Made by a program: the position numbers and the translations under genes. A DNA stretch of 64,000 nt from contig CAKQUG010000002.1 in the NCBI GenBank assembly GCA_934277545.1, positions 129,024 to 193,023 on the forward strand. The letters run 5' to 3'. Numbering within the stretch: position 1 is the stretch's first letter; each line of letters starts with the position of its first letter. The notes beneath the pieces were generated by a model, which was not told the DNA's origin, searched no databases, and saw only the letters and a list, made by a program, of their open reading frames with translations. Origin of the DNA: an uncultured Alphaproteobacteria bacterium (lineage in GTDB: Bacteria > Pseudomonadota > Alphaproteobacteria > RF32 > CAG-239). Below are positions 45,995 to 62,190 of the stretch, piece after piece.

Positions 45995-46210
45995 TCAGCG
46001 CAGGCACAAAAAACAAATTAAAAAGCTGAGCAAAAACAGCAGGTGCAAAGCGCCGGTTCCTACCACAATATTTTGATTTCCGACCACGTTTATTCCAAAA
46101 TTAAACGGAGTTGGCAGCGGTGTCGGCTGCGGTTTAGGGGTAGAATTATCATTTATCGGAGTACTTTTCATTAAAATATCCCGAATTTGCGCGTCAATAT
46201 CATTATCCAT
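45995..46210 (-). CDS. Small Pro-rich, C-terminally membrane-anchored protein co-transcribed with the prophage repressor
   Basis: 71 aa with a PKPQPTPLPTP linker and a C-terminal TM (ALHLLFLLSFLICFLCL). It starts 22 nt downstream of the repressor stop with an AAGGAC SD. Confidence 0.5.
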   Translation of the reverse strand: MDNDIDAQIRDILMKSTPINDNSTPKPQPTPLPTPFNFGINVVGNQNIVVGTGALHLLFLLSFLICFLCLR

Positions 46211-46232
46211 TACGCATAGTCCTTAAATTTAA

Positions 46233-46676
46233 TCAGTTTACTTTACGAAATTCGTCATAAATATCCATATAGTCTTTAATTTTTGCATTGGCGTTATCTA
46301 AAGATTCGTTACAGATTTTAGAATAAAGCAAGCGGATTAGTTCGGCTTTATCATGCGGTGTCATTTTAGCTTCTCGTTTTTCCAGCCAGGTTTCAACATT
46401 TTCTATTACCAAACACAAAACATCTTGATTAACGGTTGATGCGAACCCTGAAGAAACCTTAAGCGGCAAGTCAGTCAGCTCTTGTTCGTCCACTTTTAAC
46501 AGACGAGCCAGTTTCTGACGTTCTACTTCACCCAGGCGGCGAGGTGAGCCGTTTTTAATAAATTGTTGAATATATGCGATATTTTTGCCTAAACTTAAAG
46601 AAACTTTGGCGAAATTCAAACCTCGCTCGTTAATTAAACGGGCGATTTTTTTTCTTATTTCTTCTGTATCATCCAT
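46233..46676 (-). CDS. Prophage repressor-like XRE-family HTH protein (cI-like, no S24 peptidase domain)
   Basis: N-terminal HTH (IARLINERGLNFAKVSLSLGKNIAYIQQFIKNG). It is divergent from the early/late genes across an AT-rich switch region. Confidence 0.65.
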   Translation of the reverse strand: MDDTEEIRKKIARLINERGLNFAKVSLSLGKNIAYIQQFIKNGSPRRLGEVERQKLARLLKVDEQELTDLPLKVSSGFASTVNQDVLCLVIENVETWLEKREAKMTPHDKAELIRLLYSKICNESLDNANAKIKDYMDIYDEFRKVN

Positions 46677-46799
46677 TTTTTGACCTCTAAAGTTGTTATT
46701 ATAAGTATTATATAATATATATCTTAGAAAGTAAAATGATATTTTTCTTATTGACTTTATAATATTTATCTTATATCTTTAAGAAAAATGGAGAGTAAA

Positions 46800-47294
46800 A
46801 TGATTGATGAAGAATATATATCAAAAGAAGAAGCCTTGAAAAAAGGCTATAGACGCCGTCGCAGCAAAGGATTGTATAAAACGTCAGTGCTGGAAAAATA
46901 CTATGAAAACGGCGTGTTGGAGCTGTGCGGAAGTCCATTCAGCGCTGCCGACCGCAAACGAGCCGGCGAACAGCTGGTAAAAGATTTTTATTTAGGAAAT
47001 TATAATAATTTACAGTCTGTATCCTTAATAAGAACCGGAACCTGCACAGGCGGCAGGGATGAGGCTTTAATCTATCAAGAGCGTTATATAAAGGCCATGC
47101 AAAGCGTGCCGAAAGAGTTTTGGCCGGTGGTCAGATATGTTTGTATAGAGGACAAAGAGTTAAAAGCAGATAAGAATATTATACCTCACAGCCTTTTAAG
47201 CAAACAGGTGGTGTATCACTTAAAATCCTTGCTGGTGCTGGGTTTGGAACGATTAGTAAAATATTATTTGCAAAAAAATGAAAAAAGTTCTTGA
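46800..47294 (+). CDS. Phage early protein, candidate late-gene regulator (Q-like antiterminator hypothesis)
   Basis: 164-aa protein from ATG 46800 with a GGAGAG SD 7 nt upstream (the ORF track starts at 46788). Basic N-terminus (KKGYRRRRSKG), 4 Cys. Its stop codon lies inside a TTGACA -35 element. Confidence 0.4.
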   Translation: MIDEEYISKEEALKKGYRRRRSKGLYKTSVLEKYYENGVLELCGSPFSAADRKRAGEQLVKDFYLGNYNNLQSVSLIRTGTCTGGRDEALIYQERYIKAMQSVPKEFWPVVRYVCIEDKELKADKNIIPHSLLSKQVVYHLKSLLVLGLERLVKYYLQKNEKSS

Positions 47295-47319
47295 CATCAG
47301 GTAACCTGTGTGCTAATAA
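47291..47319 (+). promoter_or_regulatory. Candidate sigma-70 promoter (TTGACA-N17-TAATAA) reading into a terminator then the late genes
   Basis: TTGACA at 47291-47296, a 17-nt spacer, and TAATAA at 47314-47319. This is a sequence match only. Confidence 0.35.
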
Positions 47320-47364
47320 AATTACTATGATGTAAAATTGTATTTAGAAAAAACTTATATTTTA

Positions 47365-47404
47365 AGAGATTAAGCTCAGTGTTCTGCTTAATCTCTGTTT
47401 TTTT
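47365..47404 (+). terminator. Strong intrinsic terminator immediately upstream of the structural-gene cluster
   Basis: Perfect 11-bp stem AGAGATTAAGC / GCTTAATCTCT with a 10-nt loop, then GTTTTTTT. It ends 14 nt before the GroES-like gene RBS (AGGAGA). Confidence 0.75.
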
Positions 47405-47418
47405 AGGAGAAATATAAA

Positions 47419-47664
47419 ATGCTGAAAGCAATAGCAGACAGGCTTATTGTTAAGCCTGATAAAACTTTGCCGTCCGTGTTGATTGGAGTTGAAACTGAAA
47501 AAAAGTTTACTAATCAAGGCGTTGTACAAAGTGTCGGCGACAAGGTAACAATGGCGTCCGTCGGTGAACATATAATTTTTCATCGCTTTGACGAATTGCC
47601 ATTACCGCAGAATGATTTAGTGGTTATTCGGGAAAAAAGCCTTTTGGGCAAAATCTCGGAATAA
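47419..47664 (+). CDS. GroES/Cpn10-like co-chaperonin homolog (phage-encoded, truncated roof hairpin)
   Basis: 81 aa. LKAIADRLIVK matches GroES IRPLHDRVIVK, followed by a mobile-loop-length segment, QSVGDKV (like LAVGNG), ASVGEHIIF (like VKVGDIVIF) and NDLVVIREKSLLGKI (like EEVLIMSESDILAIV). Confidence 0.5.
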   Translation: MLKAIADRLIVKPDKTLPSVLIGVETEKKFTNQGVVQSVGDKVTMASVGEHIIFHRFDELPLPQNDLVVIREKSLLGKISE

Positions 47665-47684
47665 TCTTAATATTTTTTAATCTG

Positions 47685-47722
47685 ACAGACCGTGTAGTTT
47701 TTACCGGTCTGTTTTTGTTTGG
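47685..47722 (+). terminator. Second intrinsic terminator between the GroES-like gene and the portal gene
   Basis: 8-bp stem ACAGACCG / CGGTCTGT with a 12-nt loop, then TTTTGTTTGG. Confidence 0.5.
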
Positions 47723-47731
47723 GAGAAAATT

Positions 47732-49471
47732 ATGGAAAAACAAGATAACAACAAGCTGTATAAAGAGTGGCTTGCCAAAATCCGCTCATCGGAAAAAGCC
47801 TATGAGGATTATTATGAATTGGTTGAGGAAATTCGCAAATATTACCGCAACGAACGAAAACGCAACAAACAAAGCATTTTTTGGTCGTCGGTGGAAACTT
47901 TAAAACCATTTTTATATTTCAAACAGCCGCAGCCTTTTATTATTCGCAGCAACAAAAAGTCAGACGCTGTTGAAAACACCGCTTGCCGAATTTTGGAAAA
48001 GGCGCTGGAATGGGATATGAAACAGTTTGATTTTGACAGTGTCGTCAAATATGCCCGCAATGATTTTTTGCTTTCCGGCATGGGAATTTTGTGGGAGCAA
48101 TATCACTCTAGTTTCAAATATATCGGCAATGTTACTTTAAAAGACAAAGAGCAGGTTACCACTCAATATGTTAATCCGATGTCATTTTTGGCAGATGTCG
48201 ATAAAGTTAATGTTTGGGAAGATGTGGAATGGATTGCCCGCAAAACGTTTATGAACGTTAATGAAATTTATTGTAATTTCGGCGAAGAATTGGCTGATTA
48301 TTTTTGGCAGCATAATTTTACCGATAAAAGTATTTCCGTTTATGAAATTTGGGATAAAAAAACACGCAAAATTTATTATCTGAGCCCAGAATTGCCTGAT
48401 ACTTTTTTACAAATTAACGAAGATACCCTGCATTTGAGCGGATTTTTTCCGTGTCCGAAACCGATTATGGCGACTTTAACCAACGACGGTATTGTTCCGG
48501 TTCCCGATTATGTGGAAATAAAGAGCCTGCTTGATGAACTGGACGGAGTTAACAGCCGCATGCGCTTGACCATGCAGGCGCTGAAAGTTTCAGGCTGTTA
48601 CGACAGTTCTTTTCCGGAACTGGCAAACATTTTGGATAAGGATGTAACGCTGATTGCCTTAAATGATTTTGACAAACTCAAAGACGCCGGCGGCATTAAC
48701 GGAATTATCGATTTTGCACCGATTGAACAATATGTCAACACCTTGCAGGTTTTGGCGGAACGCCGCAAAATTTTGATTGATTCCATTTATGAAGTAACCG
48801 GCGTCAGCGATATTATGCGCGGTGCTTCAAATTCGCAGGACACGGCAACGGCAGTGGTTAAAAAGACCAATTTCGGCACGTTGCGCAATCAAGACCGTCA
48901 AAATGACATGCAGCGTTTTTTGAAAGATTTGCTGCACATTAAAGCCGAGATTATCTGTGAACAATTTTCGCCGGATACTTTGGCGGCTTTTGTGGCGGAT
49001 GAGACGGCGCAAACCCCGGATGTTGTTGCGCATGCTGTCGATTTACTGAAAACTCAAAAACTCCGCGGTATGGTTATTGAACTGGTAACCGACGGCAGTT
49101 TTGATATTGATAAACAGGAAGAAAATGTTTTGCAGGTGCTGGAGCATATTCATGAAATGGTCAGCCAGGCGTTCGGCCTTGTTTCGCAGCAGCCTGCGCT
49201 TTTGCCTTTGTATCGGCAAATGATTGAAGCGGCGGCGGCGACGCTTTCTAATGCCAGACAGTTTGAAAATGTGCTGGAACATGTTTTTGATAAAATCAGC
49301 GCTGAACTGAACGCGCCCGACCCTCAGGTTCAGCAGGCGGAAGACAAGATGGTAGCCTTGCAATCGCAAAAAATACAGCAGGATTTTGCCATTAAACAGG
49401 AACAAAATCAAATCAAGCGCGAAGAGCTGGATTTGAAGAAAATTACTGAATTGAACAAAATTTCAAAATAA
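47732..49471 (+). CDS. Putative phage portal (head-tail connector) protein
   Basis: 579 aa. Its size and position at the head of the morphogenesis block, and its acidic helical C-terminal region, are typical of podovirus portals. There is no definitive motif. Confidence 0.45.
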   Translation: MEKQDNNKLYKEWLAKIRSSEKAYEDYYELVEEIRKYYRNERKRNKQSIFWSSVETLKPFLYFKQPQPFIIRSNKKSDAVENTACRILEKALEWDMKQFDFDSVVKYARNDFLLSGMGILWEQYHSSFKYIGNVTLKDKEQVTTQYVNPMSFLADVDKVNVWEDVEWIARKTFMNVNEIYCNFGEELADYFWQHNFTDKSISVYEIWDKKTRKIYYLSPELPDTFLQINEDTLHLSGFFPCPKPIMATLTNDGIVPVPDYVEIKSLLDELDGVNSRMRLTMQALKVSGCYDSSFPELANILDKDVTLIALNDFDKLKDAGGINGIIDFAPIEQYVNTLQVLAERRKILIDSIYEVTGVSDIMRGASNSQDTATAVVKKTNFGTLRNQDRQNDMQRFLKDLLHIKAEIICEQFSPDTLAAFVADETAQTPDVVAHAVDLLKTQKLRGMVIELVTDGSFDIDKQEENVLQVLEHIHEMVSQAFGLVSQQPALLPLYRQMIEAAAATLSNARQFENVLEHVFDKISAELNAPDPQVQQAEDKMVALQSQKIQQDFAIKQEQNQIKREELDLKKITELNKISK

Positions 49472-49483
49472 AGGAGAATATAA

Positions 49484-50251
49484 ATGCCATACGACAGTAA
49501 CGGATTGTTTACCAGAATGCACAACTGGGAAGACGATAGAAAAAATGAAATAGACATTGTGTCTGACCGGCACGATGAAGAAGACGATAATTTTGCCGAC
49601 GGCTTGAGCGAGTGTTTGTTAAAAGACGGAAGGGCACCGATGAAAGGCGAGCTGAAAATGGGCGGTTTCCAAATCAGAAACCTGGCTAAAGGTACTTCAG
49701 AAAAAGACGCCGTAAATAAAGAACAGCTGGAGGAAACGAAAAAATTGCTTACCGAAGTGATGAATAAAGTTTTTTGTGTGGGCGATATTAAAGCGTCGGT
49801 GCAAACCGCTGACCACGATAATTGGCTTTTATGCAACGGGCATGAAGTAAGCCGCACGGCTTATTCCGAATTATTTGCTTTAATCGGCACTGGTTTTGGT
49901 GCCGGAGACGGCTTAAACACCTTTAATCTGCCGGATTATCGCGGTAAATTTTTGCGTGGTTTGGGCGGAGATTCGGCGCCAAATTTGCAAACAACTCAAG
50001 ATGAAGGCTTGCCGAACATTACCGGTCAGTCTCAGGCGCAGGACGGCTATTTATACGGCACTCCGCCGACAACAGGCGCTATCCGCATGGTTAATCCGCG
50101 TACCGGAAACACTCGTTCCGGCGACGGCGGCGGCGCTTATTATTTTACGTTTGATGCCAGTTTATCAAATTCAATTTACGGTGCCAGCAACCATGTAACG
50201 CCGATAAATCAGGCGGTAAACTATTTTATTAAGGCCAAAAAGGAGGAATAG
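49484..50251 (+). CDS. Phage tail fibre/collar protein with C-terminal Phage_Tail_Collar domain
   Basis: WLLCNGHEVSRTAYSELFALIGTGFGAGDGLNTFNLPDYRGKFLRG matches the tail-collar (PF07484) signature. AGGAGA RBS. Confidence 0.65.
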   Translation: MPYDSNGLFTRMHNWEDDRKNEIDIVSDRHDEEDDNFADGLSECLLKDGRAPMKGELKMGGFQIRNLAKGTSEKDAVNKEQLEETKKLLTEVMNKVFCVGDIKASVQTADHDNWLLCNGHEVSRTAYSELFALIGTGFGAGDGLNTFNLPDYRGKFLRGLGGDSAPNLQTTQDEGLPNITGQSQAQDGYLYGTPPTTGAIRMVNPRTGNTRSGDGGGAYYFTFDASLSNSIYGASNHVTPINQAVNYFIKAKKEE

Positions 50252-50254
50252 GCG

Positions 50255-50614
50255 ATGACTGGAAGAATTTTGCCCGGCGCAGATATTATTGAAGTGCGTC
50301 AGGGCGACAGCTTTAATATAAAATTGCGATTTAAGGCAAAAAATAAAGCATTGGATTTATCTGCTTTAAAAGTAATTATGCAGGTGCGCAAAAACGAAAA
50401 CGATTCTTTGGTTTTTGAAAAAGAGGCCGAAGCGGTTGAGGCGGCTCAGGGAATATATTTGCTGCGTTTGACTCCCGCTGAAACTTCGGCGCCGGCCGGC
50501 AATTATAAAACGGACATTCAGGTAATGTTTGCTAACGGCGAAGTAAACACGATTTTTCCGCAGAGCGTGGCAAAAATCGGAGTGTTTCGTTTAACTCCGC
50601 AAGTAACCAAGTGA
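50255..50614 (+). CDS. Hypothetical phage structural protein (119 aa)
   Basis: Tightly packed between fibre genes. No motif recognised. Confidence 0.4.
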   Translation: MTGRILPGADIIEVRQGDSFNIKLRFKAKNKALDLSALKVIMQVRKNENDSLVFEKEAEAVEAAQGIYLLRLTPAETSAPAGNYKTDIQVMFANGEVNTIFPQSVAKIGVFRLTPQVTK

Positions 50615-50621
50615 GGGACCC

Positions 50622-51590: not shown

Positions 51591-51968
51591 ATGTTTATCG
51601 CATTAAAAGACAATAAAATAATAGCATATAATAAAACAGGGGAATTTCCTTGTTTGGTTTGTGATGAAATTAAAGAAACAGAAAATATGGATTTGCTGAA
51701 TGTCGGCGAAGAGTTTTTACCAAAGACGGATGAACGCGCCGTTGCAAAAATTAAAGAGGATATTCGGGCGGTGCGTAACTTTTATTTGCGTGAGACCGAT
51801 AAATATATGATTGCAGATTATCCGCTGACCGAAGCAGAGCGGCAGAGCATTAAAGCGTATCGGAAGTATCTGCGGGATTATACTTTAGCCGAAAATTGGT
51901 GGCAAACCGAACCGCTAGGCTTTGGAGAATGGACCAATGTGGTAACAAATAATAAGTTAAACGGATAA
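51591..51968 (+). CDS. Tail fibre assembly protein-like (Tfa/Caudo_TAP-like C-terminus)
   Basis: C-terminal IKAYRKYLRDYTLAENWWQTEP resembles the conserved Tfa end (WKKYRVLLNRVD..AP.IEWP). It lies immediately downstream of a fibre gene, and its start overlaps the fibre gene's stop codon. Confidence 0.45.
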   Translation: MFIALKDNKIIAYNKTGEFPCLVCDEIKETENMDLLNVGEEFLPKTDERAVAKIKEDIRAVRNFYLRETDKYMIADYPLTEAERQSIKAYRKYLRDYTLAENWWQTEPLGFGEWTNVVTNNKLNG

Positions 51969-52037
51969 AGCCGGTTGCAACTTCAAGGACAACAAGTGAG
52001 ATTAAAATATGTTTTTTTATAATATTTAAGAGGTTCT

Positions 52038-52749: not shown

Positions 52750-52758
52750 GGAGGATCA

Positions 52759-53034
52759 ATGGCTAAGAAAAAATTGAAAGCGTATTCTTTCAGTGAAAGC
52801 CTGGAAATGCTGAATCGTCTGCAGCAAATGGCTGTTGATGAAGGTAATATCAATTTGGCTTTGAAAGCAGAAGAGTTGAAATGTAAAATTGCCGCTATGC
52901 AGACGGATAAAGAAAGTTCGCAATCGGCGGAAAATTTAACAAAAATATTGGTGGATTTTATAAATGACAAACAAAATGATTGCAAAAATACCGAAAATTT
53001 TTGCGCCTCTGATGAAGCTGAAACGCCGCTATAA
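52759..53034 (+). CDS. Hypothetical protein, possible terminase small subunit
   Basis: 91-aa helical protein immediately upstream of, and overlapping, the large terminase. The assignment is positional only. Confidence 0.3.
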   Translation: MAKKKLKAYSFSESLEMLNRLQQMAVDEGNINLALKAEELKCKIAAMQTDKESSQSAENLTKILVDFINDKQNDCKNTENFCASDEAETPL

Positions 53035-54289
53035 ACTTTATTACGGCGGACGGGCCGGCGGAAAATCGTATGCTTTTGCCGACAGCCTGCTGTTTTTGGG
53101 GCGGATGAAAAAACTTCGGATTGCCTGTATGCGCGAGGTGCAGGACAGTATTAAAGATTCTGTTTACAAACTCTTAAGCGATAGGATTAGTTTTTATGGC
53201 TTAACTGATTATAAAATCAGCGAAACTAAGATTGTAAACCGGCTGAGCGGTACGGCTTTTATATTTAAAGGCTTGCGCGAGCAAGATTCAAACAATATCA
53301 AGTCTTTGGAAGGCATAGATATTGTATGGCTGGAAGAAGCGCAGAAAATCAGCAAAAAAAGCTGGGATATTTTAGACCCGACAATTCGTAAAGCCGGTTC
53401 GGAAATTTGGATTTCTATGAACAGAGAAGAAGAAAACGACCCGGTTTGGCTGGCTGTCGGCGCAAAACCTGACGAGCGGACTTTGGTTGTTAAGGTCAAC
53501 TATACCGATAATCCGTTTTGTCCGGAAGAAATGCGTTATCTGGCGCAAAAATGTCAAAAGGAAAATCCCGAAGACTATAATCATATTTGGCTTGGTGCTC
53601 CGGTTTCTGTTGGCAGTTATAAACTTATTGCGCCGAAGTTGGTGCGTCAGGCTTTTGAAACCAAACTTGAAAATCCGTCATCGCCGCTGATTATCGGGCT
53701 GGACGTGGCGCGTTTCGGCGATGATAAAAGCGTGTTTTGCTTTCGACGCGGGCGAGTGTGTTTGTTTTTTGAAAGCTATGCCCGTTTGGATAATGTGGAA
53801 GTGGCAAATCGAGCCACTTTTTTTATCCGCCAATATAAACCGGCGCGGGTGTTTGTTGATGCCGGCGGCGTGGGCGGCGGTGTGGTGGATATTTTGAACG
53901 ACCGCGGTTTTAAGCGGATAGTGCGGCCGATTATGTTCGGAGCCAAGGCGTTGGCTGACGACCGCTATCATAACCGCCGCGCTGAAATGTGGGACGAACT
54001 GCGGATATGGCTGAGCGGAGAGCAAAAGGTTGAACTGCCGAATGATGAAAATTTGGCAAACGAACTTTGTGCCGTTAACAAAAAATATGACAGCCGAGGG
54101 CGCTTGCAGCTGGAGGAAAAAGAAGAAATTAAAAAACGGTTGGGCAAGTCGCCGGATATGGCGGACGCATTGGCGCTGACTTTTGCCGAGCCGGTTTTTG
54201 AACGGCCGGACACAGAGTGCGGACGTCTGCCGGGCGACAGCATAGAAAGTATGTTTCGCGCCAATAAATCCACCGATGATAAATGGTAA
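52964..54289 (+). CDS. Phage terminase large subunit (PBSX/XtmB-like)
   Basis: Walker A YGGRAGGKS near the N-terminus, and a C-terminal RNaseH-like nuclease region with acidic residues (IGLDVARFGDD, VDAGG). An alternative start is ATG 53012. Confidence 0.8.
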   Translation: MTNKMIAKIPKIFAPLMKLKRRYKLYYGGRAGGKSYAFADSLLFLGRMKKLRIACMREVQDSIKDSVYKLLSDRISFYGLTDYKISETKIVNRLSGTAFIFKGLREQDSNNIKSLEGIDIVWLEEAQKISKKSWDILDPTIRKAGSEIWISMNREEENDPVWLAVGAKPDERTLVVKVNYTDNPFCPEEMRYLAQKCQKENPEDYNHIWLGAPVSVGSYKLIAPKLVRQAFETKLENPSSPLIIGLDVARFGDDKSVFCFRRGRVCLFFESYARLDNVEVANRATFFIRQYKPARVFVDAGGVGGGVVDILNDRGFKRIVRPIMFGAKALADDRYHNRRAEMWDELRIWLSGEQKVELPNDENLANELCAVNKKYDSRGRLQLEEKEEIKKRLGKSPDMADALALTFAEPVFERPDTECGRLPGDSIESMFRANKSTDDKW

Positions 54290-54318
54290 TTTAATTAAAA
54301 GAAAAAGGAGAAAATAAA

Positions 54319-54987
54319 ATGACTTATAGACCAAGAATGGTACGTGAAAACGAGGCTTACGGCTGGTTGCCAGAAGATGAAGCCTATGGCAGAGTTTCTA
54401 ATGTTTCTACACAGCAGGAACAGGAAGATGAAAACGCTTACAGCGACAATGAACTTGCTCCGGAAAGAAGTTTTGAAGAACAAAAACTATTTGAAAGAGT
54501 GCAAAATGATCCAGATTGGTGGAGTAAAAATTCAGGTTTAAGAGCAAGTTTTGATGGTTATAATTTTTTTGTTAAAAATAATGGAGAATTAATAGGAGAA
54601 TATCCGGCGATTTCAGGAAGAGATGAATATCAAACAAAAGAAGCGACTATTTTTCAAGATAGAGGTCCTATTCCCGAAGGTTCATACACATTAAATTATA
54701 ATGATTATGAAATGTATGATGAAAATAAAGCTAAAGAAGGTGGGCGTTTTAGTTGGATGAATAAACCGGATAGTTGGGGAAGTGAACGTTTAGCTATTAC
54801 AGCAGATAAAAATACCAATACTTATGGAAGAGGTGGATTTTATGTTCATGGTGGTAGTACACCAGGTTCTAATGGTTGTATAGATTTAACAACTTATATG
54901 CCTGACTTTGGTAAGATTGTTAGAGAATATCAAGAAGATATTCCCCTTATTGTTAAATATCGAGATGATTTTGGTGAAAAAAAATAA
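54319..54987 (+). CDS. Tlde1/DUF2778-like (YkuD L,D-transpeptidase-fold) domain protein, candidate peptidoglycan-targeting effector
   Basis: C-terminal GGFYVHGGSTPGSNGCIDL contains the His ... S-x-G-C-I catalytic signature of L,D-transpeptidase-like enzymes. GC falls from about 45% to about 30% from about 54480 onward. Confidence 0.4.
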   Translation: MTYRPRMVRENEAYGWLPEDEAYGRVSNVSTQQEQEDENAYSDNELAPERSFEEQKLFERVQNDPDWWSKNSGLRASFDGYNFFVKNNGELIGEYPAISGRDEYQTKEATIFQDRGPIPEGSYTLNYNDYEMYDENKAKEGGRFSWMNKPDSWGSERLAITADKNTNTYGRGGFYVHGGSTPGSNGCIDLTTYMPDFGKIVREYQEDIPLIVKYRDDFGEKK

Positions 54988-55015
54988 AAGAATAGCTTGC
55001 ATTTAAGATATATTT

Positions 55016-55417
55016 ATGTATTATATTGGTGTAAATACAATTATATGGTGTGTAATGAGTGATAAGTTAAAAAGTATGATAAAAGAAAATCCAGAATTGA
55101 TAATGATATTTTTTATAATCTTAATATCATTTATAACAAGTATTTTTTGTTTTCGAGATTATGTATATCGTCAACGAGATATGAGTTTGCATATATGGAA
55201 TTTAACTTTGCATTGGCGTACTATATCAATTATAATACATAACATAGTATATATAATGTTGGCAGTTTCATTTTTCTTTGTGCCGCACAGAATTAAATTT
55301 ATGTATATAGGATTTATTGTTGGATATTTTTTATTTTGTTCAAATCATAATTGTTTTATGGCTATAAATTCCAAAAATGAAGTTTTATGGACTTTAGGGA
55401 GCGTTTGGTTAAAATGA
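55016..55417 (+). CDS. Polytopic membrane protein (low-GC moron)
   Basis: 133 aa, at least 3 hydrophobic helices, GC about 28%. Confidence 0.45.
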   Translation: MYYIGVNTIIWCVMSDKLKSMIKENPELIMIFFIILISFITSIFCFRDYVYRQRDMSLHIWNLTLHWRTISIIIHNIVYIMLAVSFFFVPHRIKFMYIGFIVGYFLFCSNHNCFMAINSKNEVLWTLGSVWLK

Positions 55418-55767
55418 TTCTACAAACATGGGATTATAAAGTTGTCAAACTCTTATTTATAGGCTTTTTAACTATATCAGTTGTTTTAGTTGTCGAGGGT
55501 TTACTGCATTATTTTCTTGCACCGGATACGCCAAAGACAAATGAAATTTTAGCTGCAATATTTATGCACTTAATTCCTTGTCTGTATATTCCATTGATAG
55601 GTTTGTGGTGTTTGCCGCGTCATTTGAATATGGGATATTTTTTGTGCGGAGTAGATGTTGTATATTTAATATTTCAACTACATTGTTTACTGTATCGCTA
55701 TCTATGGCCGGATTATGGTGATTGGTGGATTTGGAAATATACTATAGGTAAGTTATTTAAGGAATAA
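55387..55767 (+). CDS. Polytopic membrane protein (low-GC moron)
   Basis: 126 aa, 3-4 hydrophobic helices. It overlaps the preceding ORF by 31 nt. GC about 28%. Confidence 0.45.
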   Translation: MDFRERLVKMILQTWDYKVVKLLFIGFLTISVVLVVEGLLHYFLAPDTPKTNEILAAIFMHLIPCLYIPLIGLWCLPRHLNMGYFLCGVDVVYLIFQLHCLLYRYLWPDYGDWWIWKYTIGKLFKE

Positions 55768-55773
55768 AAATAT

Positions 55774-55998
55774 ATGAAACGGGTATTTTATTTTGCAGCA
55801 GCATTTATCGTTTTGGCGGTTATCGGTTTTGTCGGATATTTGTTTTTTGATAAACAAGCCTATTGCTTGGATATTGGAAAAATCTATGATTCGGTGCAAA
55901 AAATCTGCCGTGATGACTGCTTGAGTTGGAACGATCAAACCGGCTGCGTGCCGATAACAGATGAAAACCGGCAGAAAAAAGCCGCCGGAAAACTGTAG
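55774..55998 (+). CDS. Small signal-anchored Cys-rich protein (4 Cys), candidate periplasmic immunity/accessory protein
   Basis: 74 aa with an N-terminal TM/signal anchor and four Cys (CLD...CRDDC...GC). Confidence 0.4.
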   Translation: MKRVFYFAAAFIVLAVIGFVGYLFFDKQAYCLDIGKIYDSVQKICRDDCLSWNDQTGCVPITDENRQKKAAGKL

Positions 55999-56013
55999 AA
56001 AATAATCATTGGC

Positions 56014-56049
56014 TTTATGGAACAAACGCTTTGTTTAACTGAAAACAAG
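56014..56049 (+). terminator. Rho-independent terminator closing the moron cassette
   Basis: 13-bp stem AAACGCTTTGTTT / AAACAAGGCGTTT (one mismatch), loop AACTGA, then TTTT. Confidence 0.55.
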
Positions 56050-56080
56050 GCGTTTTTTTATACCCGAAATTTGGAGAAAG

Positions 56081-56311
56081 ATGATGACCTACATCAGCAG
56101 GCAATTCGCGGAAGAGGTGCTTCTTCCGGACGGATCTGTCGCGTCTTCTGTCGCGGACGTTGACAAGTATTTACGCGCCACGGGCTTAGCTCTGGCCGGC
56201 GACTATTCAGCCGAATATTATCAAAATATTCGCAATCAACAAGAAAGAGAACGGCAGCAATCTTTGTTTGCCGATTTTCTTTATAACTACAAAAGGATGA
56301 TATGGAAATGA
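56081..56311 (+). CDS. Hypothetical phage protein (76 aa)
   Basis: ORF with a GGAGAAAG RBS. Its 3' end overlaps the next gene. Confidence 0.35.
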   Translation: MMTYISRQFAEEVLLPDGSVASSVADVDKYLRATGLALAGDYSAEYYQNIRNQQERERQQSLFADFLYNYKRMIWK

Positions 56312-57177
56312 ATGATTTAAGAAAAGAACTTGAACGTCAGTTCAAAGCGTTCGGTTTATCTGAGCCGGACAAAAAAACAATAGATGAAATTCCGGCGGAA
56401 GCTGATGAGAATGCTCAAAACGGGCTGATTGCCGCTCCTGCCGATTTTGAACCGGAATATGCGGCGGCGTTCAGCGAACTTTCGCCCAAGTGGCAGAATT
56501 ATTTAAACAAGCGAGAAGAAAAACTAAAAGCCGAGCGCAAGGAATTGTCGGCAAAAATCGGGCTTTTGGACAGCCTGAAAAATTTGGACGGTGCTTTTCA
56601 AAAACGTAAAACCGAAAACAACATACATAGCTTGCGCGAATGGCTGGAAGGTTTGGTTTATATTGACGAGCAAATGCACCGCCGTCCGGTGGAAACCTTA
56701 AACGCCATTGCTCAGGTGTTTAAGGTAAAGGCGCAGTTTACCGAAACTCCGCAAACCGAAATTTCTGACCGAATTTTAAAAAGACTGACGGAACTCGATT
56801 TGAGTTTTCACAGCCTCCGAGACTATTTGCAGCAAAGCGAACAGAAAAGTTTTTACAGTCAAATACAAGACTTCGGTCTGCAAAAAGATGAAACAGGACA
56901 TCTGCTTCATCCGTATTTTGACGCTGTTTACAAACAAATGCAGACTTTGTTGCAAAACGGACTGGCTTCAAGCATTGAAGACGCCTACAAGCAGGCGGTT
57001 TGGCTTAATGCCGATGTCCGTAAAGAGCTGATTGCCAAACAAATCAACTCTGACGCTGCCGAAGCGCAAAAGGCGCAGAAAGCGGCGTTTTCTCCGAAAG
57101 GAAAAGCAAAAGCGCCGGAAAGACCTCTGACTTTGAGGGAAGAAATTGAAAAAAATATGGCTGCTTTTTTGGATTAA
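56302..57177 (+). CDS. Putative scaffolding protein
   Basis: 291-aa charged, helical/coiled protein immediately upstream of the putative major capsid gene. Confidence 0.4.
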   Translation: MEMNDLRKELERQFKAFGLSEPDKKTIDEIPAEADENAQNGLIAAPADFEPEYAAAFSELSPKWQNYLNKREEKLKAERKELSAKIGLLDSLKNLDGAFQKRKTENNIHSLREWLEGLVYIDEQMHRRPVETLNAIAQVFKVKAQFTETPQTEISDRILKRLTELDLSFHSLRDYLQQSEQKSFYSQIQDFGLQKDETGHLLHPYFDAVYKQMQTLLQNGLASSIEDAYKQAVWLNADVRKELIAKQINSDAAEAQKAQKAAFSPKGKAKAPERPLTLREEIEKNMAAFLD

Positions 57178-57201
57178 CTTAAAATTTTAAAAGGATAAAA
57201 A

Positions 57202-58167
57202 ATGATAAATAAAGATTATAATGAAGTGTTTACCGTAACTTTGAACAACCGTTCAAAAGAAATGGCTGATAATATTTCTAAAAATAATGCGCTTTTAACC
57301 CGCTTAAAAGACAAGGGCAAAATGCGTCAGCTGACCGGCGGTGTAAAAATTTTGGAAGAACTGGAATACGGCGAGGGCGATATGGTATGGTATTCAGGTT
57401 ATGATACCATTAACTATACTCCTAAGCAACTGTTTACGGCTGCTGAATATGCACTAAAACTGTGTGCGGTACCGGTGGCTGTTTCCGGTGAAGAATTACT
57501 GATGAACAGCGGTCCGGAACAAGTTATGGATTTGTTTGAAAAACGTATTTCCAATGCTGAAAAAACTTTGAAAAATCAAATGTCAGTTGCTTTGTACAGC
57601 GATGGCACCGGTTCTTCGGGTAAGGAAATCGGCGGTTTGGCTTTGCTGGTTGCCGATGATCCGACTTCCGGCACGGTCGGAGGTATTGACCGTTCGGCTG
57701 CCGGAAGCGAATTTTGGCGCAACCAATCAGTTAGTGCGGATATTGATTCATCCAACATTCGCCAGATGATGAACAGCTTGTATCACAAATGCTGCCGCAA
57801 TTCTGACAAACCGGATTTGATTGTCTGCGATGACGCTTTGTATACTTTGTTTGATGAATCTTTGTCGGTTTTACAGCGTTTCTCTGACCCTAAAATGGCG
57901 GACGCCGGTTTTACCAGCCTCAAATTCAAGGGCGCCGATGTAATTTTTGACGGCGGCCAGGGCGGTCATTGTCCGGAAAAACACATGTACTTTTTGAACA
58001 CTAACTACATTTATCTGCGTACTCATAAAGATCGCAATATGAAAATTATCGGTGGCGACAGATTAGCGATAAATCAGGATGCGCTATATCGCATTATCGG
58101 TTGGGCCGGCAATATGACTATGTCTAACGCGGCGGTTCAAGGCGTGTTGATTAACACTAAAGAATAA
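57202..58167 (+). CDS. Putative major capsid protein
   Basis: 321 aa following the scaffold-like gene. Strong GGAT-rich RBS. No decisive motif. The assignment rests on size and position. Confidence 0.45.
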   Translation: MINKDYNEVFTVTLNNRSKEMADNISKNNALLTRLKDKGKMRQLTGGVKILEELEYGEGDMVWYSGYDTINYTPKQLFTAAEYALKLCAVPVAVSGEELLMNSGPEQVMDLFEKRISNAEKTLKNQMSVALYSDGTGSSGKEIGGLALLVADDPTSGTVGGIDRSAAGSEFWRNQSVSADIDSSNIRQMMNSLYHKCCRNSDKPDLIVCDDALYTLFDESLSVLQRFSDPKMADAGFTSLKFKGADVIFDGGQGGHCPEKHMYFLNTNYIYLRTHKDRNMKIIGGDRLAINQDALYRIIGWAGNMTMSNAAVQGVLINTKE

Positions 58168-58253
58168 TCGTTAAACCACAGAAAAGGAGTGAAATAAAAA
58201 AATCACTCCTTTTCAAATCGTTACAAAAATAAGATAAAGTAAAGGAATAGACT

Positions 58254-58838
58254 ATGGATATGGATTTTGCCTTGTTTCAACAGGTAATCGGCGCAAAAGA
58301 AACCGAAAAAAACGTGGCGGCGAGATTTTATGACAAAGCCGTTAAAACCAGTGAAGTGTCGGCTAACGGTTTGCCGATTTTTAAAAATGTTACATATATT
58401 GAAATCCGCTTGAAAGATAATAACACTGAAGTATTTAATCAGCCGGCGACAGCGGAAAAAATTCGGCGTTTTCCGCAGGAATACGCGTTGTATCAGCTTT
58501 CTAAAAAGCAAGCAGAAAACGGTACTCCGCTGGAACAGTTTGCCTTTTTGACTGCGGCGGAAATTGCCACTTGTAAAAGCCGTGGCGTGTTTACGGTGGA
58601 AACTTTAGCAGGTTTGGATTTTGATAAAGTGCAAAGCCTGGGCTTGCAGGATGAGCATGTTTTAGCGCAAATGTTTTTGGAAAAATCAGAAAATAACAAA
58701 ATGTTAGACGATTTTGCTAAAAAAGAGCTTGAATATGAAAGAGAAATTGAATCTTTGCGCGAACAGCTGGCAGCCATGCAAAGAGCGCTTAGTGAAGAGC
58801 GTAAAAAACATGCCGACGCCAAAGCAGGAGAAAAATAA
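58254..58838 (+). CDS. Hypothetical phage structural protein (194 aa; coiled-coil C-terminus)
   Basis: Downstream of the capsid gene. Coiled C-terminal segment (ELEYEREIESLREQLAAMQRAL). Confidence 0.35.
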   Translation: MDMDFALFQQVIGAKETEKNVAARFYDKAVKTSEVSANGLPIFKNVTYIEIRLKDNNTEVFNQPATAEKIRRFPQEYALYQLSKKQAENGTPLEQFAFLTAAEIATCKSRGVFTVETLAGLDFDKVQSLGLQDEHVLAQMFLEKSENNKMLDDFAKKELEYEREIESLREQLAAMQRALSEERKKHADAKAGEK

Positions 58839-59560
58839 TGAAGACAATTTTGGAAATTTGCCGCGAGGTTGCGGATTTGGCAGCGACCAAGCGCCCGAAT
58901 GATTTATTTGATGCCAACAGCCAGCAGGAAAGTATTTTTTTGAGCGTGGCAAAATCGGCTCTCGACAGTCTGCTGCGTTACGGCGATTGGCAGGAGCTGA
59001 CAAAAGAAGGATGTCTGCGCACGGTTGAGGGACGTACTCAATATCCTATTTCCGAGTTTTTGCCGGATTTTTTTTGTCTTCTGAACAATACGATTTTTAT
59101 TAAAGACGGCAAAGAACGCATAATCGGCGCCATTACGCCGGAACAATGGATGCGGGAAAAATATTTTTCCAGTCCGAGCAATGAATTGAAATTTAAAATT
59201 CAAAACGGACGTTTTGTGTTTTTAACTCCTCCGGCCGGTGGTTTACGGATTGTTTTTCAATATCGCTCCAACGGAATTGTTTGGGATTTTGATACATTTG
59301 AAGAAAAAAGTTCGCTCACCGCCAATACTGATGTTCCGGTTTTTGACGAATATCTGGTTAAGCTGAATATTTTATGGCGGTGGCTGAAACGCAGCGGATT
59401 GGACTATGGCGAAGAATATGATGAATTTCAGCGCGAATTGAAAAAGCGTTTTGGTTCCGAACACGCCGCTGCCAACATAAATTTGACAAAGTCGGATAAC
59501 GGTTTGAGCGAAACAGGAGTAATAATCAATGAAGTTAAAATTAGCAGTACGGGGCAATAA
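58838..59560 (+). CDS. Hypothetical phage structural protein (240 aa)
   Basis: Translationally coupled (ATGA overlap) with the upstream gene. Confidence 0.35.
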   Translation: MKTILEICREVADLAATKRPNDLFDANSQQESIFLSVAKSALDSLLRYGDWQELTKEGCLRTVEGRTQYPISEFLPDFFCLLNNTIFIKDGKERIIGAITPEQWMREKYFSSPSNELKFKIQNGRFVFLTPPAGGLRIVFQYRSNGIVWDFDTFEEKSSLTANTDVPVFDEYLVKLNILWRWLKRSGLDYGEEYDEFQRELKKRFGSEHAAANINLTKSDNGLSETGVIINEVKISSTGQ

Positions 59561-61088
59561 GTCGGTAAGCTATACTTTGCCGGCACCGATAAAAGGTTTG
59601 AATGTGCGCGACGGTTGGGCGAATATGGACGCAGGTTACGCCATTGTGATGGATAACTATATGCCGCTGGACACTAAAGTGGCGCTGCGTAAAGGTTATG
59701 TTGAATATGTAGGGTTGCCGGAAAAAGTATGTACGCTGACCGAATATAAAGTCGGCGGCAACAATTATTTTATAGCTGTTTCCGGCGGCGCTGCCTATAA
59801 CATCAGCTCGCGCAAAAATATTTACGTCTATGAAAATGTTAAGTTTACAAACAGTTATTGCCGTACTCAGCAATACAAAAACTATTTGTATTTTGTGAAC
59901 GGTAGCGATACCCCGAAAGTTTATTACCGCGGTGAAGATGGAACCGAGCATTTTGAAGATTGGGGCTTTACGGCCGAAAATTTGAATGCCACCCGTATTG
60001 CCGGTGTCGGACTTTCCAAGCAGCGCTTGTGGTTTATCGAAAGCGGCACTCTTAAAGTCTGGTATCCCGAAACCGCCGGCAATATTGCCGGAAAGCTGAA
60101 TTATTTTGATTTAGCGCAGGTTGCGCGTTTCGGCGGCGAACTGGTGGCGGTTGCCAACTGGACGCAGGACGGCGGGCAGGGAATTGACGATTTGACGGTG
60201 TTTATCACTTCAGAAGGCGAAGCGCTGGTTTATGTGGGGTCGGATATTAACAATGCCGATAGCTGGCAGCTGCGCGGTTCCTATAAAATCAGTCGTCCGA
60301 TTGGATATGATTGCCTGGTGCCGTATCAAGGCGATGTGGTGATAATTTCCGAAGATGGCTATATTCCGCTGTCCAAAGCCTTGCCGCTGGAACAGGCCAA
60401 CGCTTCGCAAATTGCGTTCAGCGATGCCATCCGTGGGTTGGTGTTATCGCGGACTGCGCATAATTTGAAACGTTATGGCTGGCAGGGTGTAATTTACAGC
60501 CGCGGCGGTTATGGATTGTTTAATGTTCCGGTATCTAATCAATACGAACAGCATGTTATCAATTTAAATACCGGGGCTTGGTGCCGTTTTACCGGCATCC
60601 GCGCGCATTGTTGGGGGTTATATAATCAGCGGCTTTATTTCGGTTCGGACCGAGGTGTTTATTTGTTTGATGAAAGCTATGCGGATAACGGCACCGAAAT
60701 CAGCGGCTGCGTGGAGCAGGCGTATAATGATTTAGGCAGTAACAGTGTTAAAAAAATTCAGCTGCTTAATCCCCGCACCAAATCAAGCACCGGGTATTCA
60801 TTGGTTATTTATACCAATATGGATATGGAAAGCCGTAAAATTGACTATCAGGAAAACTTATCGTCTTCCGGCTTGCACAAGTGGAATGAAACCAAATGGT
60901 CGAGTTCGTTTAATCCGCTTGGTATCAAGTGGGGAGCTGCCGACAGCACTTCAATCCGCAGTCAGTGGATAGCCAATTCTGCCACCGGCTACAAAGCCGG
61001 CATAGTGTTTAAAACCAAAACCAAAGGCAATTTGATAGAATGGTTTGAAACCGGTATTCGCTATGAAGTAGGGAGCGGCGTGCTATGA
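59529..61088 (+). CDS. Phage structural protein (519 aa; beta-rich, possible tail tubular/nozzle or receptor-binding protein)
   Basis: Large protein rich in Gly/aromatic residues, in the late block. No motif recognised. Confidence 0.35.
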   Translation: MKLKLAVRGNKSVSYTLPAPIKGLNVRDGWANMDAGYAIVMDNYMPLDTKVALRKGYVEYVGLPEKVCTLTEYKVGGNNYFIAVSGGAAYNISSRKNIYVYENVKFTNSYCRTQQYKNYLYFVNGSDTPKVYYRGEDGTEHFEDWGFTAENLNATRIAGVGLSKQRLWFIESGTLKVWYPETAGNIAGKLNYFDLAQVARFGGELVAVANWTQDGGQGIDDLTVFITSEGEALVYVGSDINNADSWQLRGSYKISRPIGYDCLVPYQGDVVIISEDGYIPLSKALPLEQANASQIAFSDAIRGLVLSRTAHNLKRYGWQGVIYSRGGYGLFNVPVSNQYEQHVINLNTGAWCRFTGIRAHCWGLYNQRLYFGSDRGVYLFDESYADNGTEISGCVEQAYNDLGSNSVKKIQLLNPRTKSSTGYSLVIYTNMDMESRKIDYQENLSSSGLHKWNETKWSSSFNPLGIKWGAADSTSIRSQWIANSATGYKAGIVFKTKTKGNLIEWFETGIRYEVGSGVL

Positions 61089-61528
61089 ATGATGAATATG
61101 AAATTCTGCCCGATAAAAACAATATTATCGCCAAATGGGTTTGCAAGGGTTTAGGCGAGGGCACTGATTGGCTTGACCAGTATATAACTTATGGTTTTGC
61201 CCAAGGCGGAAAAATGCTCGGCGGCTTAATTTTTCACAGCTATCGTCCTAACACCGAAGTTTGGTGGACAGTATACACCGTTGACAAACGTTGGTGTAAC
61301 CGCCGCATGTTAAAAGTTATGTTTGACATCGCTTTTAACAAATTAAAATGCCGGCGCATATCGCTTTTAGTCAGCAAAAGTAATGTCGCCGGCATAAATT
61401 TTGTAAAGAAACTTGGATTTCAGCAAGAAGGAATGTTCAGAGTCTATCGTGAAAACGGGGAAGATTGTTACATTTTCGGTATGCTGAAAAACGAATGTAA
61501 ATGGATTAAAAATGGAGAAAATAAATGA
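61085..61528 (+). CDS. GNAT-family N-acetyltransferase
   Basis: Acetyl-CoA binding pattern (RRISLLVSKSNVAGINFVKKLGFQQEG). It has 4-nt overlaps with both neighbouring genes. Confidence 0.55.
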   Translation: MNDEYEILPDKNNIIAKWVCKGLGEGTDWLDQYITYGFAQGGKMLGGLIFHSYRPNTEVWWTVYTVDKRWCNRRMLKVMFDIAFNKLKCRRISLLVSKSNVAGINFVKKLGFQQEGMFRVYRENGEDCYIFGMLKNECKWIKNGENK

Positions 61529-62190
61529 GTAAATCAATTGGCAAAGTTTTTGCAAATTCTTCAACCGATAAATACGGTTATGAAAAGAACTATTTGAATT
61601 ATTTAGGTAATTACGATACTTCAAATTATGACAATACATTGAAAAATATGACAGGTCAGGCTTTTGACATGAGTAAAAATTTGAGCAGGATGCCGGAATA
61701 TCAGTTTTCGATAAACGGCTCGGATGACGCTCGTCAGCGCATGGAAAACGCCGTATATCAATCGGCAGTGGACAAACTTAATCCGCAATATCAGCAGCAG
61801 CGCGCCGATTTGGAAACAAGTTTGGCCAACAAAGGTATCAGCGTTGGCAGCGAGGCTTATCAGCGTGCGATGAACAACTTGCAGCAAAAACAGAATGAGG
61901 CGCTTAATCAGGCGGCTTATCAAAGTATTGCGGCCGGGCAGGGTGCTTATAGCCAAAGTTTGAACGATAGTATCAATAGCGCAAATTTCAATAATAATTC
62001 GCAGTTGAACTACATTCAGCAAATTAAAGCGCTGTTGGAAGGCTCTGTTTCAGGTTATCAGAATCAGGCAAATTTGTATAATGTTAACAAAAATGTCGAG
62101 AATCGCCAGACCTCGGCTCGCCAAAGCGGGTGGAATAATATGTTTAAAACTGCAGAAATCACCGAAAAACTTGCTGATACATTTAAATAG
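61525..62190 (+). CDS. Hypothetical Gln/Asn-rich phage protein (221 aa)
   Basis: Low-complexity Q/N/S-rich sequence. It is the last gene of the phage block before a stem-loop. Confidence 0.35.
   Translation: MSKSIGKVFANSSTDKYGYEKNYLNYLGNYDTSNYDNTLKNMTGQAFDMSKNLSRMPEYQFSINGSDDARQRMENAVYQSAVDKLNPQYQQQRADLETSLANKGISVGSEAYQRAMNNLQQKQNEALNQAAYQSIAAGQGAYSQSLNDSINSANFNNNSQLNYIQQIKALLEGSVSGYQNQANLYNVNKNVENRQTSARQSGWNNMFKTAEITEKLADTFK

Follow-up and report, generated by a model that had tools for sequence, protein, structure and literature searches.

A candidate gene transfer agent of podovirus ancestry at the priA locus of uncultured gut Alphaproteobacteria

Gene transfer agents (GTAs) are known from only a handful of independent lineages. 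In Bartonella, BaGTA was recognised by its conserved site, by Ka/Ks values like those of core genes on its flanks and by co-divergence (Guy 2013). Its cluster comprises a small open reading frame (ORF), a large terminase (TerL) of 447 amino acids (aa), a portal protein of 620 aa, a protein of about 280 aa, the capsid protein, a protein of about 490 aa and the fibres (Guy 2013, Table 2). In some early reports, the particles of BaGTA are said to be tailless or short-tailed. Its late cluster is controlled through BrrG, a processive antiterminator reported to override a leader terminator (10.1101/2024.11.20.624540). Antitermination is also documented for Caulobacter, where GafZ, which corresponds to the C-terminal domain of GafA, acts with GafY in transcriptional activation and anti-termination and has a dedicated binding element at the GTA cluster's promoter (PMC11150451). 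Homologues of GafA carry the annotation DUF6456 (PMC9638019). Sherlock et al. proposed that a missing N-terminal DNA-binding domain marks a small terminase (TerS) as being of the GTA type and is the cause of random packaging (PMC6854486). According to one survey, no GTA had been described from human gut commensals before FpGTA (PMC12946183). Here we describe a block of phage-type genes of about 16 kb at positions 45995-62190 of a 64,000-nucleotide stretch of contig CAKQUG010000002.1 from an uncultured alphaproteobacterium (the window, meaning the whole stretch of DNA analysed). We propose, with a probability of roughly 0.6, that this block is a domesticated prophage of podovirus lineage that is vertically inherited and makes particles, and hence is a candidate GTA.

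ORF annotation together with domain and PHROG profile searches identified podovirus-type head, tail-hub, fibre, lysis and terminase genes in the block. The genes for a 71-aa and a 147-aa protein lie on the minus strand and every other gene on the plus strand. The upstream flank consists of the host genes hisK, mutS, mazG and priA; downstream follows the type I restriction gene hsdR. These results bear out the extent, the gene list and the flanks (priA and a type I restriction-modification locus) given in a preliminary description of this sequence. They also agree with its statement that integrase, excisionase and replication genes are missing: no ORF inside the block or next to it encodes such a protein. 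The 40 kb at the start of the window contain 29 ORFs, and the ten of integrase-like size that were scanned all proved to be housekeeping genes. Contigs from the same species carry no replication, excision or integration genes within 6 kb downstream, and neither the window nor the flanks of related loci, taken as 10 kb, contain replication genes. Attachment (att) repeats, which that description had not seen, are indeed lacking, as the longest direct repeat common to both ends is 9 nt, a length expected by chance. It had further noted the lack of tape-measure and tail-tube genes. No such genes occur among the ORFs of the block; their absence is explained by the podovirus architecture and does not indicate a defect. 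The regulator that it called early is present and belongs to the DUF6456 (GafA-type) family. The suggestion of an intracellular host did not survive, since all sources are gut or rumen metagenome assemblies and nothing indicates intracellular life. Apart from ordinary housekeeping genes, the window contains genes for outer-membrane proteins of the FadL and beta-barrel types.

The exact capsid protein of the window was found on 22 contigs, whose named sources include Hadza and other gut metagenomes. A terminase-based scan with one genome per species returned 78 loci, nearly all from metagenome-assembled genomes (MAGs) labelled 'uncultured Alphaproteobacteria' from human gut, rumen and other animal guts. 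When the window proteins were mapped onto 84 loci, most of these proved to contain the same gene set, with identities of 57-95% for TerL and 60-96% for the capsid protein. We refer to loci with the gene order of the window as type A. In all 16 type A loci of the genome collection that extend to priA, the element lies directly after this gene. The 71-aa gene adjoins the repressor gene in all type A loci (85-96% identity) and is missing from empty sites. The exact window PriA occurs on four contigs, each of which has the element, and three out of seven lineages that were sampled by PriA homologues (76-82% identity), picked independently of the element, contain it at the same junction. Related genomes without the insert, a comparison suggested in the preliminary description, were also found, and in these the hisK-mutS-mazG-priA synteny is intact. 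Pairwise identities of the element core and of PriA correlate with a Spearman coefficient of 0.93 (11 genomes, 55 pairs), and elements of a second type (type B, at a different site) follow their own flanking genes with r = 0.99; these values come from non-independent pairs, and therefore describe the pattern and do not test it.

Comparison with 11 related species gave dN/dS ratios (nonsynonymous over synonymous divergence) of 0.01-0.32 for every element gene tested. These values exclude the small terminase, whose row corresponds to an antisense ORF; the TerS gene was extracted by position. Relative to the three closest species, dS amounts to 0.5-1.3 for the element, 0.75-0.93 for priA and 1.25-1.44 for mazG. 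The GC content at third codon positions (GC3) of the core genes (0.45-0.51) matches that of host genes (0.46-0.51), and only a group of cargo genes deviates (0.17-0.29). It is this combination of vertical inheritance and purifying selection that marks the element as a candidate GTA instead of an ordinary prophage.

The control region provides a further argument. In alignments, the helix-turn-helix (HTH) N-terminus of the 147-aa repressor is common to homologues of 211-281 aa, and its C-terminus is short and unrelated. Two of the longer repressors, one from a type B locus and one from a prophage, match Peptidase_S24 (3e-15 and 5e-20), and the repressors of type B, type C and prophage loci align across the S24 domain with a GDSM-type motif. 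These alignments indicate that the repressor of the window lineage has lost the autocleavage domain of the LexA/CI type, so that induction is probably uncoupled from RecA-mediated self-cleavage. A weak PHROG match of the repressor to a 'DNA transposition protein' reflects the shared DNA-binding domain, and there is no transposase. The intergenic region between the repressor and regulator genes contains back-to-back sigma-70-like sites. A palindrome (ATTATATAAT) and a TTGAC motif are strongly conserved there among type A loci, at a dS of the flanking genes near or above 1. The corresponding region of type B contains different palindromes, in line with the divergent type B repressor. In contrast to its phage relatives, the window lineage no longer has any of the early genes that separate repressor and regulator, and with these genes gone the rightward early promoter would drive the regulator directly.

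Eight of the 24 members of the regulator family match DUF6456 (PF20057), the best with an E-value of 9.8e-11. In full prophages the regulator gene is located upstream of TerS and TerL, with zero to five small genes in between. In the window it is followed by a conserved sigma-70-like late promoter, predicted from the sequence itself and from alignments that cover 13-17 type A loci, with a -35 element (TTGACA, 47291-47296) that overlaps the regulator stop codon, a 17-nt spacer and a -10 element (TAATAA, 47314-47319). A leader of about 45 nt leads to a hairpin (47365-47396, -14.9 kcal/mol, z -2.5) and a run of seven T residues ahead of the first late gene at 47419. Each of 17 type A loci has a hairpin with a T-run at this place, even though the sequence of both arms varies. 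Type B loci contain an analogous promoter, about 70 nt and a terminator before TerS in 11 of 12 cases. A promoter, leader and terminator in this order represent the layout of the lambda Q type, and the position of a DUF6456 regulator upstream of them implies control by antitermination, as in the GTAs of Caulobacter and Bartonella. We infer that this protein is an activator or antiterminator of the late operon. A second hairpin inside the operon, between the cargo genes and the 76-aa gene, may also function as a terminator.

Related elements encode TerS proteins of 111-189 aa that are of the GP3_package or Terminase_2 type. The protein at the same position in the window contains 91 aa, of which residues 8-69 align with residues 62-126 of Terminase_2-type TerS from related elements (hhalign, E 1.8e-5). 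They have a C-terminal motif in common (ILVDFIN/VLVKFVE), and the window gene is located immediately 5' of TerL, with which it overlaps. As judged by this alignment, the window TerS is devoid of the N-terminal DNA-binding half, and such a lack is the hallmark of RcGTA. Terminase, TerS and portal are the most conserved genes across the loci, and the capsid gene is also among them. The nearest TerL proteins from cultured phages are those of Acinetobacter, Hafnia and Vibrio phages (32-33% identity), followed by the P22-like phages Sf6, HK620 and CUS-3 (31%).

Table 1. Features of the element in window coordinates, with profile matches or remarks.
Feature	Position	Strand	Match or remark
71-aa protein, C-terminal hydrophobic segment (residues 46-71)	45995-46210	-	Leftmost element gene, co-oriented with repressor
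HTH repressor-like protein, 147 aa	46233-46676	-	
Divergent promoter/operator region between repressor and regulator	46677-46787		
DUF6456 regulator, 168 aa	46788-47294	+	
Predicted late promoter	47291-47319	+	
Predicted intrinsic terminator in leader	47365-47404	+	15 nt before first late gene
GroES-like co-chaperonin	47419-47664	+	Cpn10, 8.8e-6
Portal	47732-49471	+	phrog_12082, 4.7e-112; 32% identity to ppBjS10J-1 portal
Collar-domain fibre	49484-50251	+	Pfam Collar, 3.7e-18
BppU_N protein	50255-50614	+	BppU_N, 8e-5
Variable distal fibre, 322 aa	50622-51590	+	Cassette differs between species
Tfa chaperone	51591-51968	+	Phage_tail_APC, 7.6e-10
Holin candidate, 97 aa	52038-52331	+	Called from hydrophobic segments alone
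SleB-type endolysin, 143 aa	52318-52749	+	Hydrolase_2, 6.2e-17
Small terminase TerS, 91 aa	52759-53034	+	Overlaps TerL start
TerL, Sf6/P22-like headful type	52964-54289	+	Terminase_3, 6.8e-35
Low-GC variable cargo, four genes	54319-55998	+	
Terminator-like hairpin within late operon	56024-56055	+	13-bp stem, then T-run
76-aa conserved protein, then scaffold candidate (291 aa, 56302-57177)	56081-57177	+	
Major capsid protein, podovirus type	57202-58167	+	NF033394 capsid_maj_Podo, 6.9e-96; phrog_9953, 4.8e-107
Tail-hub/head-completion module	58254-62190	+	194-aa, 240-aa and 519-aa proteins, GNAT (147 aa), 221-aa virion protein
Tail-hub genes	58838-59560, 59529-61088, 61525-62190	+	

Taken together, these genes (Table 1) suggest that the element has kept just what builds, fills and releases particles. 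The scaffold candidate was called from its position and size. A slot between portal and capsid is kept in 68 loci, and the protein gives a partial match (33%) to a protein encoded upstream of the capsid gene in the Bradyrhizobium phage ppBjS10J-1. An AlphaFold2 model of the capsid protein, built with 37 close homologues, was poor (predicted local distance difference test score of 46). The proteins of the tail-hub module match phrog_20268, phrog_6013 (tail protein, 5e-30), phrog_5107 (2.3e-73) and phrog_6121, and we derive their probable specific roles from synteny. Sequence profiles of solved structures returned nothing useful for the regulator, the 519-aa or the 240-aa protein, and no Rfam family matched within the block. 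The GroES-like gene is kept in 57 of 84 loci and is found immediately 5' of the portal gene in both types A and B. A GNAT acetyltransferase gene (61085-61528, Acetyltransf_4) is a fixed part of the tail-hub module, flanked by the genes for the 519-aa and 221-aa proteins. This holds for the element as well as for ppBjS10J-1, the Sulfitobacter phage pCB2047-C and many podovirus contigs of IMG/VR.

The 84 loci differ in how this gene set is arranged. In type A, priA is followed by repressor, regulator, GroES, portal, fibres, lysis genes, TerS, TerL, cargo, scaffold, capsid and tail hub. Type B, the commonest, shows the canonical order of repressor, regulator, TerS, TerL, GroES, portal, scaffold, capsid, tail hub and fibres, and resides at a site whose host genes include flavodoxin, phosphodiesterase, CrcB and HSP20. 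Rumen MAGs contain further rearranged architectures. The unusual gene order pointed out in the preliminary description is real; since relatives show the canonical order, it represents a rearrangement in a single lineage. Three loci are ordinary prophages (L061, L070, L071) and two more probably are (L058, L082). In the stretch that extends from the repressor to the regulator or terminase, the first three encode a Sak recombinase, a DNA methylase, a PD-(D/E)XK nuclease, DUF6291, HNH and Mom proteins. A tree calculated from TerL, portal, capsid and 519-aa sequences in concatenation places each architecture in a clade of its own, with the prophages between them. Because full-size prophages with the same structural module keep early genes, and because of their placement in this tree, the reduced state is derived; reduction may have had more than one origin. 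In one MAG, a reduced element (L065) coexists with a full one (L071).

Two other groupings, each reduced and each at other conserved host sites, deserve mention. In five loci (L029-L031, L034, L056) an unrelated protein of 149 aa comes after the repressor instead of the DUF6456 regulator, and TerL has 500 aa. Four more (L032, L047, L048, L054) are without repressor and regulator, and carry genes for a PAPS-reductase-like protein and an SNF2-like helicase upstream of a Terminase_2 TerS. Within type A, four genomes (L007, L011, L013, L062) show identities to the window of 84-86% for the portal and 62-72% for GroES, next to 91-95% for TerL and capsid. The more diverged GroES-portal-fibre block suggests recombination within the element between lineages.

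The cargo and the distal fibre are variable parts of the element. The cargo encodes a Tlde1/YkuD-like protein with an L,D-transpeptidase fold (Tlde1_dom 1.6e-10, YkuD 1.3e-8), two multi-pass membrane proteins and a protein of 74 aa whose N-terminal part contains a hydrophobic segment. Contigs of one species carry in this slot the 222-aa gene in full, a remnant of 70 aa or an unrelated protein of 161 aa. The cargo could be a toxin-immunity pair or an accessory that acts on the cell wall. The distal fibre slot after the BppU_N gene is occupied in type A by at least six unrelated families of 270-800 aa, between flanking genes that are orthologous. Beyond the element, the downstream flank (62427-63998 in the window) is a strain-variable defence island, as seen on six contigs on which the element itself is 98-100% identical. 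Its hsdR gene is either truncated (561-636 aa) or full-length (1017 aa) and accompanied by hsdS. Depending on the contig, this gene is followed by an AAA_11/AAA_12 helicase and an SLFN-like gene, by AAA_14/DUF4143, or by AbiEii-DUF6088-RloB-AAA_15. A 226-aa serine recombinase (Resolvase and HTH_7) is encoded two genes after the 221-aa gene in three sibling species (L010, L012, L014), and is also present in a fourth locus (L026). We considered this protein as a hidden integrase and rejected it, as it is of the resolvase/invertase type and absent from the window and most loci. Between the last gene of the element and hsdR lies a perfect 14-bp inverted repeat at 62254-62285 (GAAACTCCATCGGC...GCCGGTGGAGTTTC), with a run of eight T residues before and not after it, so that it is not a canonical terminator on either strand. 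On the other side of the element, mazG (43348-43752, a MazG-family nucleotide pyrophosphohydrolase) sits between mutS and priA in all relatives. Since this position is kept with or without the element, mazG is a host gene outside of it.

Several observations weigh against the reading of this locus as a domesticated, particle-making prophage, in addition to the non-independence of the correlated pairs. The locus is not universal: in four of the seven lineages sampled by priA (77-82% PriA identity) the site is empty, and lineages with and without the element are intermingled on the PriA tree, a pattern best read as ancestral presence followed by repeated loss. The preliminary description held that finding a conserved core locus in related genomes would refute its observation. 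The same site after priA is in fact kept in many species, but with four empty lineages the locus is no fixed part of the core; this partial conservation argues against a recent mobile insert and for domestication, not against the finding as such. Taken by itself, the window regulator matches DUF6456 with an E-value of 0.0015 and a score below the Pfam cut-off, and the hhalign probability for TerS is just 78%. Autonomous relatives package 35-53 kb, and the capsid proteins with 45-48% identity come from phages of 39-53 kb. With an unchanged capsid size, one headful could hold the whole 16-kb element, which would depart from the strict textbook criterion for GTAs, by which the packaged DNA is too short for the whole encoding locus. 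One contig of the same species (L006, 5779-7093) has terL split into ORFs of 287 and 165 aa, and another (L003, 5081-5383) encodes a Tfa shortened to 100 aa; the cause is either misassembly or decay at the strain level. Finally, particle production, packaged DNA and transfer to recipients are predictions from the genes of the element.

These points raise the question as to whether the block might be something else. An inert, decaying defective prophage that persists through slow deletion would account for the lack of integrase and replication genes, for the loss from four of the seven deeper lineages and for the contigs with split terL or truncated Tfa. This explanation is very hard to credit in the face of genes that all remain intact over a range of species with PriA differences of up to about 24%, with dN/dS ratios of 0.01-0.32 at a dS of about 0.5 or more. 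Conservation extends to non-coding parts, namely the switch region, the promoter and the leader terminator, and changes in both hairpin arms preserve pairing. The defective prophage considered in the preliminary description therefore stands as the origin of the block but not as its present state, which is not one of decay. It is also improbable that the element is a still-mobile phage or satellite that borrows integration and replication functions from a helper, for example from full-size prophages of the same family. Complete related prophages do occur in the same bacterial group, one MAG contains both forms, and a 17-kb human-faecal scaffold deposited as 'Bacteriophage sp.' (MT835830.1) carries a related module in canonical order. 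This scaffold is just 64-68% identical, however, and its ends are uninformative. The element itself has no att repeats, an identical chromosomal position, co-divergence with priA, a fully host-like GC3 and a TerS without a domain to recognise its own DNA. For the same reasons of low identity and uninformative ends, we did not accept MT835830.1 as evidence of packaging. The PICI-like satellite (phage-inducible chromosomal island) suggested earlier finds no support, as the block is without integrase, replication module and att site.

Another unlikely possibility is that the particles or the lysis genes serve a different purpose, either as a PBSX-like killer particle or in programmed lysis that releases the Tlde1-like cargo toxin. 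The Tlde1/YkuD-like protein with its adjacent membrane proteins, which might be immunity factors, fits this idea, and the swapping of fibre cassettes between species is what would be expected of targeting devices. The cargo is, however, variable, recently acquired as judged by its GC3 of 0.17-0.29, and absent from many loci, and it is terminase, TerS and portal that are the most conserved genes. That the packaging machinery is kept indicates that filling with DNA matters. The domesticated particle producer, which the preliminary description had listed among its options, is thus the reading that we favour, on account of the kept priA site, co-divergence, purifying selection, the truncated TerS and the GafA-type regulator.

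As a domesticated prophage of this kind, the element might work as follows. The HTH repressor would keep the divergent promoter region shut, and its release would probably not occur via RecA-stimulated self-cleavage. Once repression is lifted, the DUF6456 regulator would be made and would act at the late promoter, such that transcription reads through both terminators and a late operon of about 15 kb is expressed. Portal, scaffold and capsid proteins would assemble into procapsids, assisted by the GroES-like protein. TerL, together with a TerS that has no DNA-recognition domain, would fill these heads by the headful mechanism from the unexcised and unreplicated chromosome. We propose that particles packaged from an unexcised chromosome with such a TerS would carry host DNA. 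After addition of the tail-hub proteins and the exchangeable fibres, holin and endolysin would lyse the cell.

A more far-reaching interpretation is possible but doubtful. The loci may constitute a new podovirus-derived GTA family that became fixed at different chromosomal positions in several uncultured alphaproteobacterial lineages of gut and rumen, through repeated reduction of one temperate-phage family, and that is run by a GafZ-type antiterminator. Its particles would preferentially move the downstream defence island, making the element a fixed platform for lateral transduction. This preference is surmised because packaging would start on the unexcised chromosome and because the capsid may hold about 40 kb. 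If the element is a GTA, a further alphaproteobacterial GTA lineage, of podovirus origin, would stand beside RcGTA/CcGTA and BaGTA. The series from full prophage to reduced and to rearranged element would provide a natural record of stepwise domestication, in which early genes, the SOS-cleavable repressor domain and the DNA-binding domain of TerS were lost. Control of the GafA/GafZ type would extend beyond RcGTA-like elements, which would support the recent proposal that antitermination is a general principle of GTA control in Alphaproteobacteria. Finally, a common uncultured bacterium of the human and ruminant gut would possess a route for gene exchange, possibly for defence islands.

Comparison with cultured phages relates the element, module by module and as far as protein identities tell, to Mx8, ppBjS10J-1 and Sf6. 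The 44.6-kb phage ppBjS10J-1 shares the capsid protein (48%), the portal (32%), the 519-aa protein (30%), and also the 194-aa, 240-aa and GNAT proteins. The capsid proteins of the Myxococcus phages Mx8 and Mx9 are 45-47% identical, and that of BUCT555 is in the range of 45-48%. The 40.9-kb phage pCB2047-C shares the 519-aa protein (26%), TerL (29%), GNAT and the 221-aa protein; its capsid and portal match none of the window proteins. The order of the tail-hub genes is the same in ppBjS10J-1, pCB2047-C and many IMG/VR contigs of 35-40 kb. In contrast to the element, the temperate podoviruses ppBjS10J-1, Mx8 and pCB2047-C have autonomous genomes of 40-50 kb, with replication and recombination genes in ppBjS10J-1 and pCB2047-C and an integrase in pCB2047-C. 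The phage relatives also encode several proteins of 400-670 aa after the 221-aa homologue, some of them with an annotation as peptidoglycan hydrolase. The window contains no counterparts of these proteins, and the element may be without internal or ejection proteins.

Other classes of phage-derived elements fit less well. A functional temperate prophage would be expected to have an integrase, att sites and a replication module, none of which was found here, and the repressor is without S24. Capsid-forming PICIs have an integrase, a primase-replicase and helper-dependent induction, and carry capsid genes but no tail, fibre or lysis genes. The element shows the opposite combination, with its own tail hub, fibres and lysis genes and without integrase or replication genes, which also separates it from PICIs in general. 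Tailocins consist of a tail only, whereas capsid, portal and terminase are present here and are among the most conserved genes. Of the features of GTAs in general, we do find a complete set of particle, packaging and lysis genes without self-replication, excision or integration functions, co-divergence at a fixed site (four of seven deeper lineages being empty) and purifying selection like that of host core genes. The missing DNA-binding half of TerS is an indirect hint that packaging might show no preference for the genes of the element.

Among individual GTAs, BaGTA invites the closest comparison. Both elements reside in alphaproteobacterial hosts, the bgtA-K cluster of about 14 kb resembles the element in gene order and gene sizes, and both have a leader terminator before the late cluster. 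Both were also recognised on the same kind of evidence, and prophage relatives exist for each, in the case of BaGTA together with duplicates in the same genus. The layout and a GC content of about 42% raised the suspicion that the element is Bartonella's own BaGTA. This identification fails, as all source contigs are from uncultured gut or rumen Alphaproteobacteria. BaGTA is linked to a run-off replication module (ror, brrA-G) that has no equivalent beside the element, and its regulator is the Q21-like BrrG instead of a DUF6456 protein. The element also differs in that its host is of a gut commensal lineage and in that it is not universal in its clade. The TerL of pCB2047-C is said to nest in the BaGTA clade. 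The window TerL is 29% identical to it over residues 8-228, about half its length, and thus no closer to it than to Sf6 TerL (31%), although pCB2047-C is a weak proxy for BaGTA. Membership of the element in the BaGTA family (Bartogtaviriformidae) is, as far as this comparison reaches, unlikely. The effect of BaGTA with its run-off replication origin would be comparable to that of the speculative lateral-transduction platform considered above.

With RcGTA and CcGTA, the element has the regulator family in common (DUF6456, that is GafA/GafZ). The RcGTA-like family (Rhodogtaviriformidae) is characterised by a siphovirus-type head-tail cluster homologous to RcGTA g1-g15, and the regulator family DUF6456 is all that the element shares with it. 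RcGTA has another viral ancestor: it is siphovirus-like, has a tape measure and packages about 4 kb into a small T=3 head, whereas the element is of the podovirus type and its TerL resembles that of Sf6. The window shows no link to CtrA or quorum sensing, and unlike in RcGTA and CcGTA the regulator of the element is encoded inside the element, next to a repressor of its own. FpGTA from Faecalibacterium is GTA-like, belongs to a human-gut bacterium and has podovirus-like morphology (PMC12946183). It differs from the element in its Firmicute host, its 10.5-kb operon and its documentation by mapping of capsid-DNA reads (PMC12946183), the element being known here from its genes.

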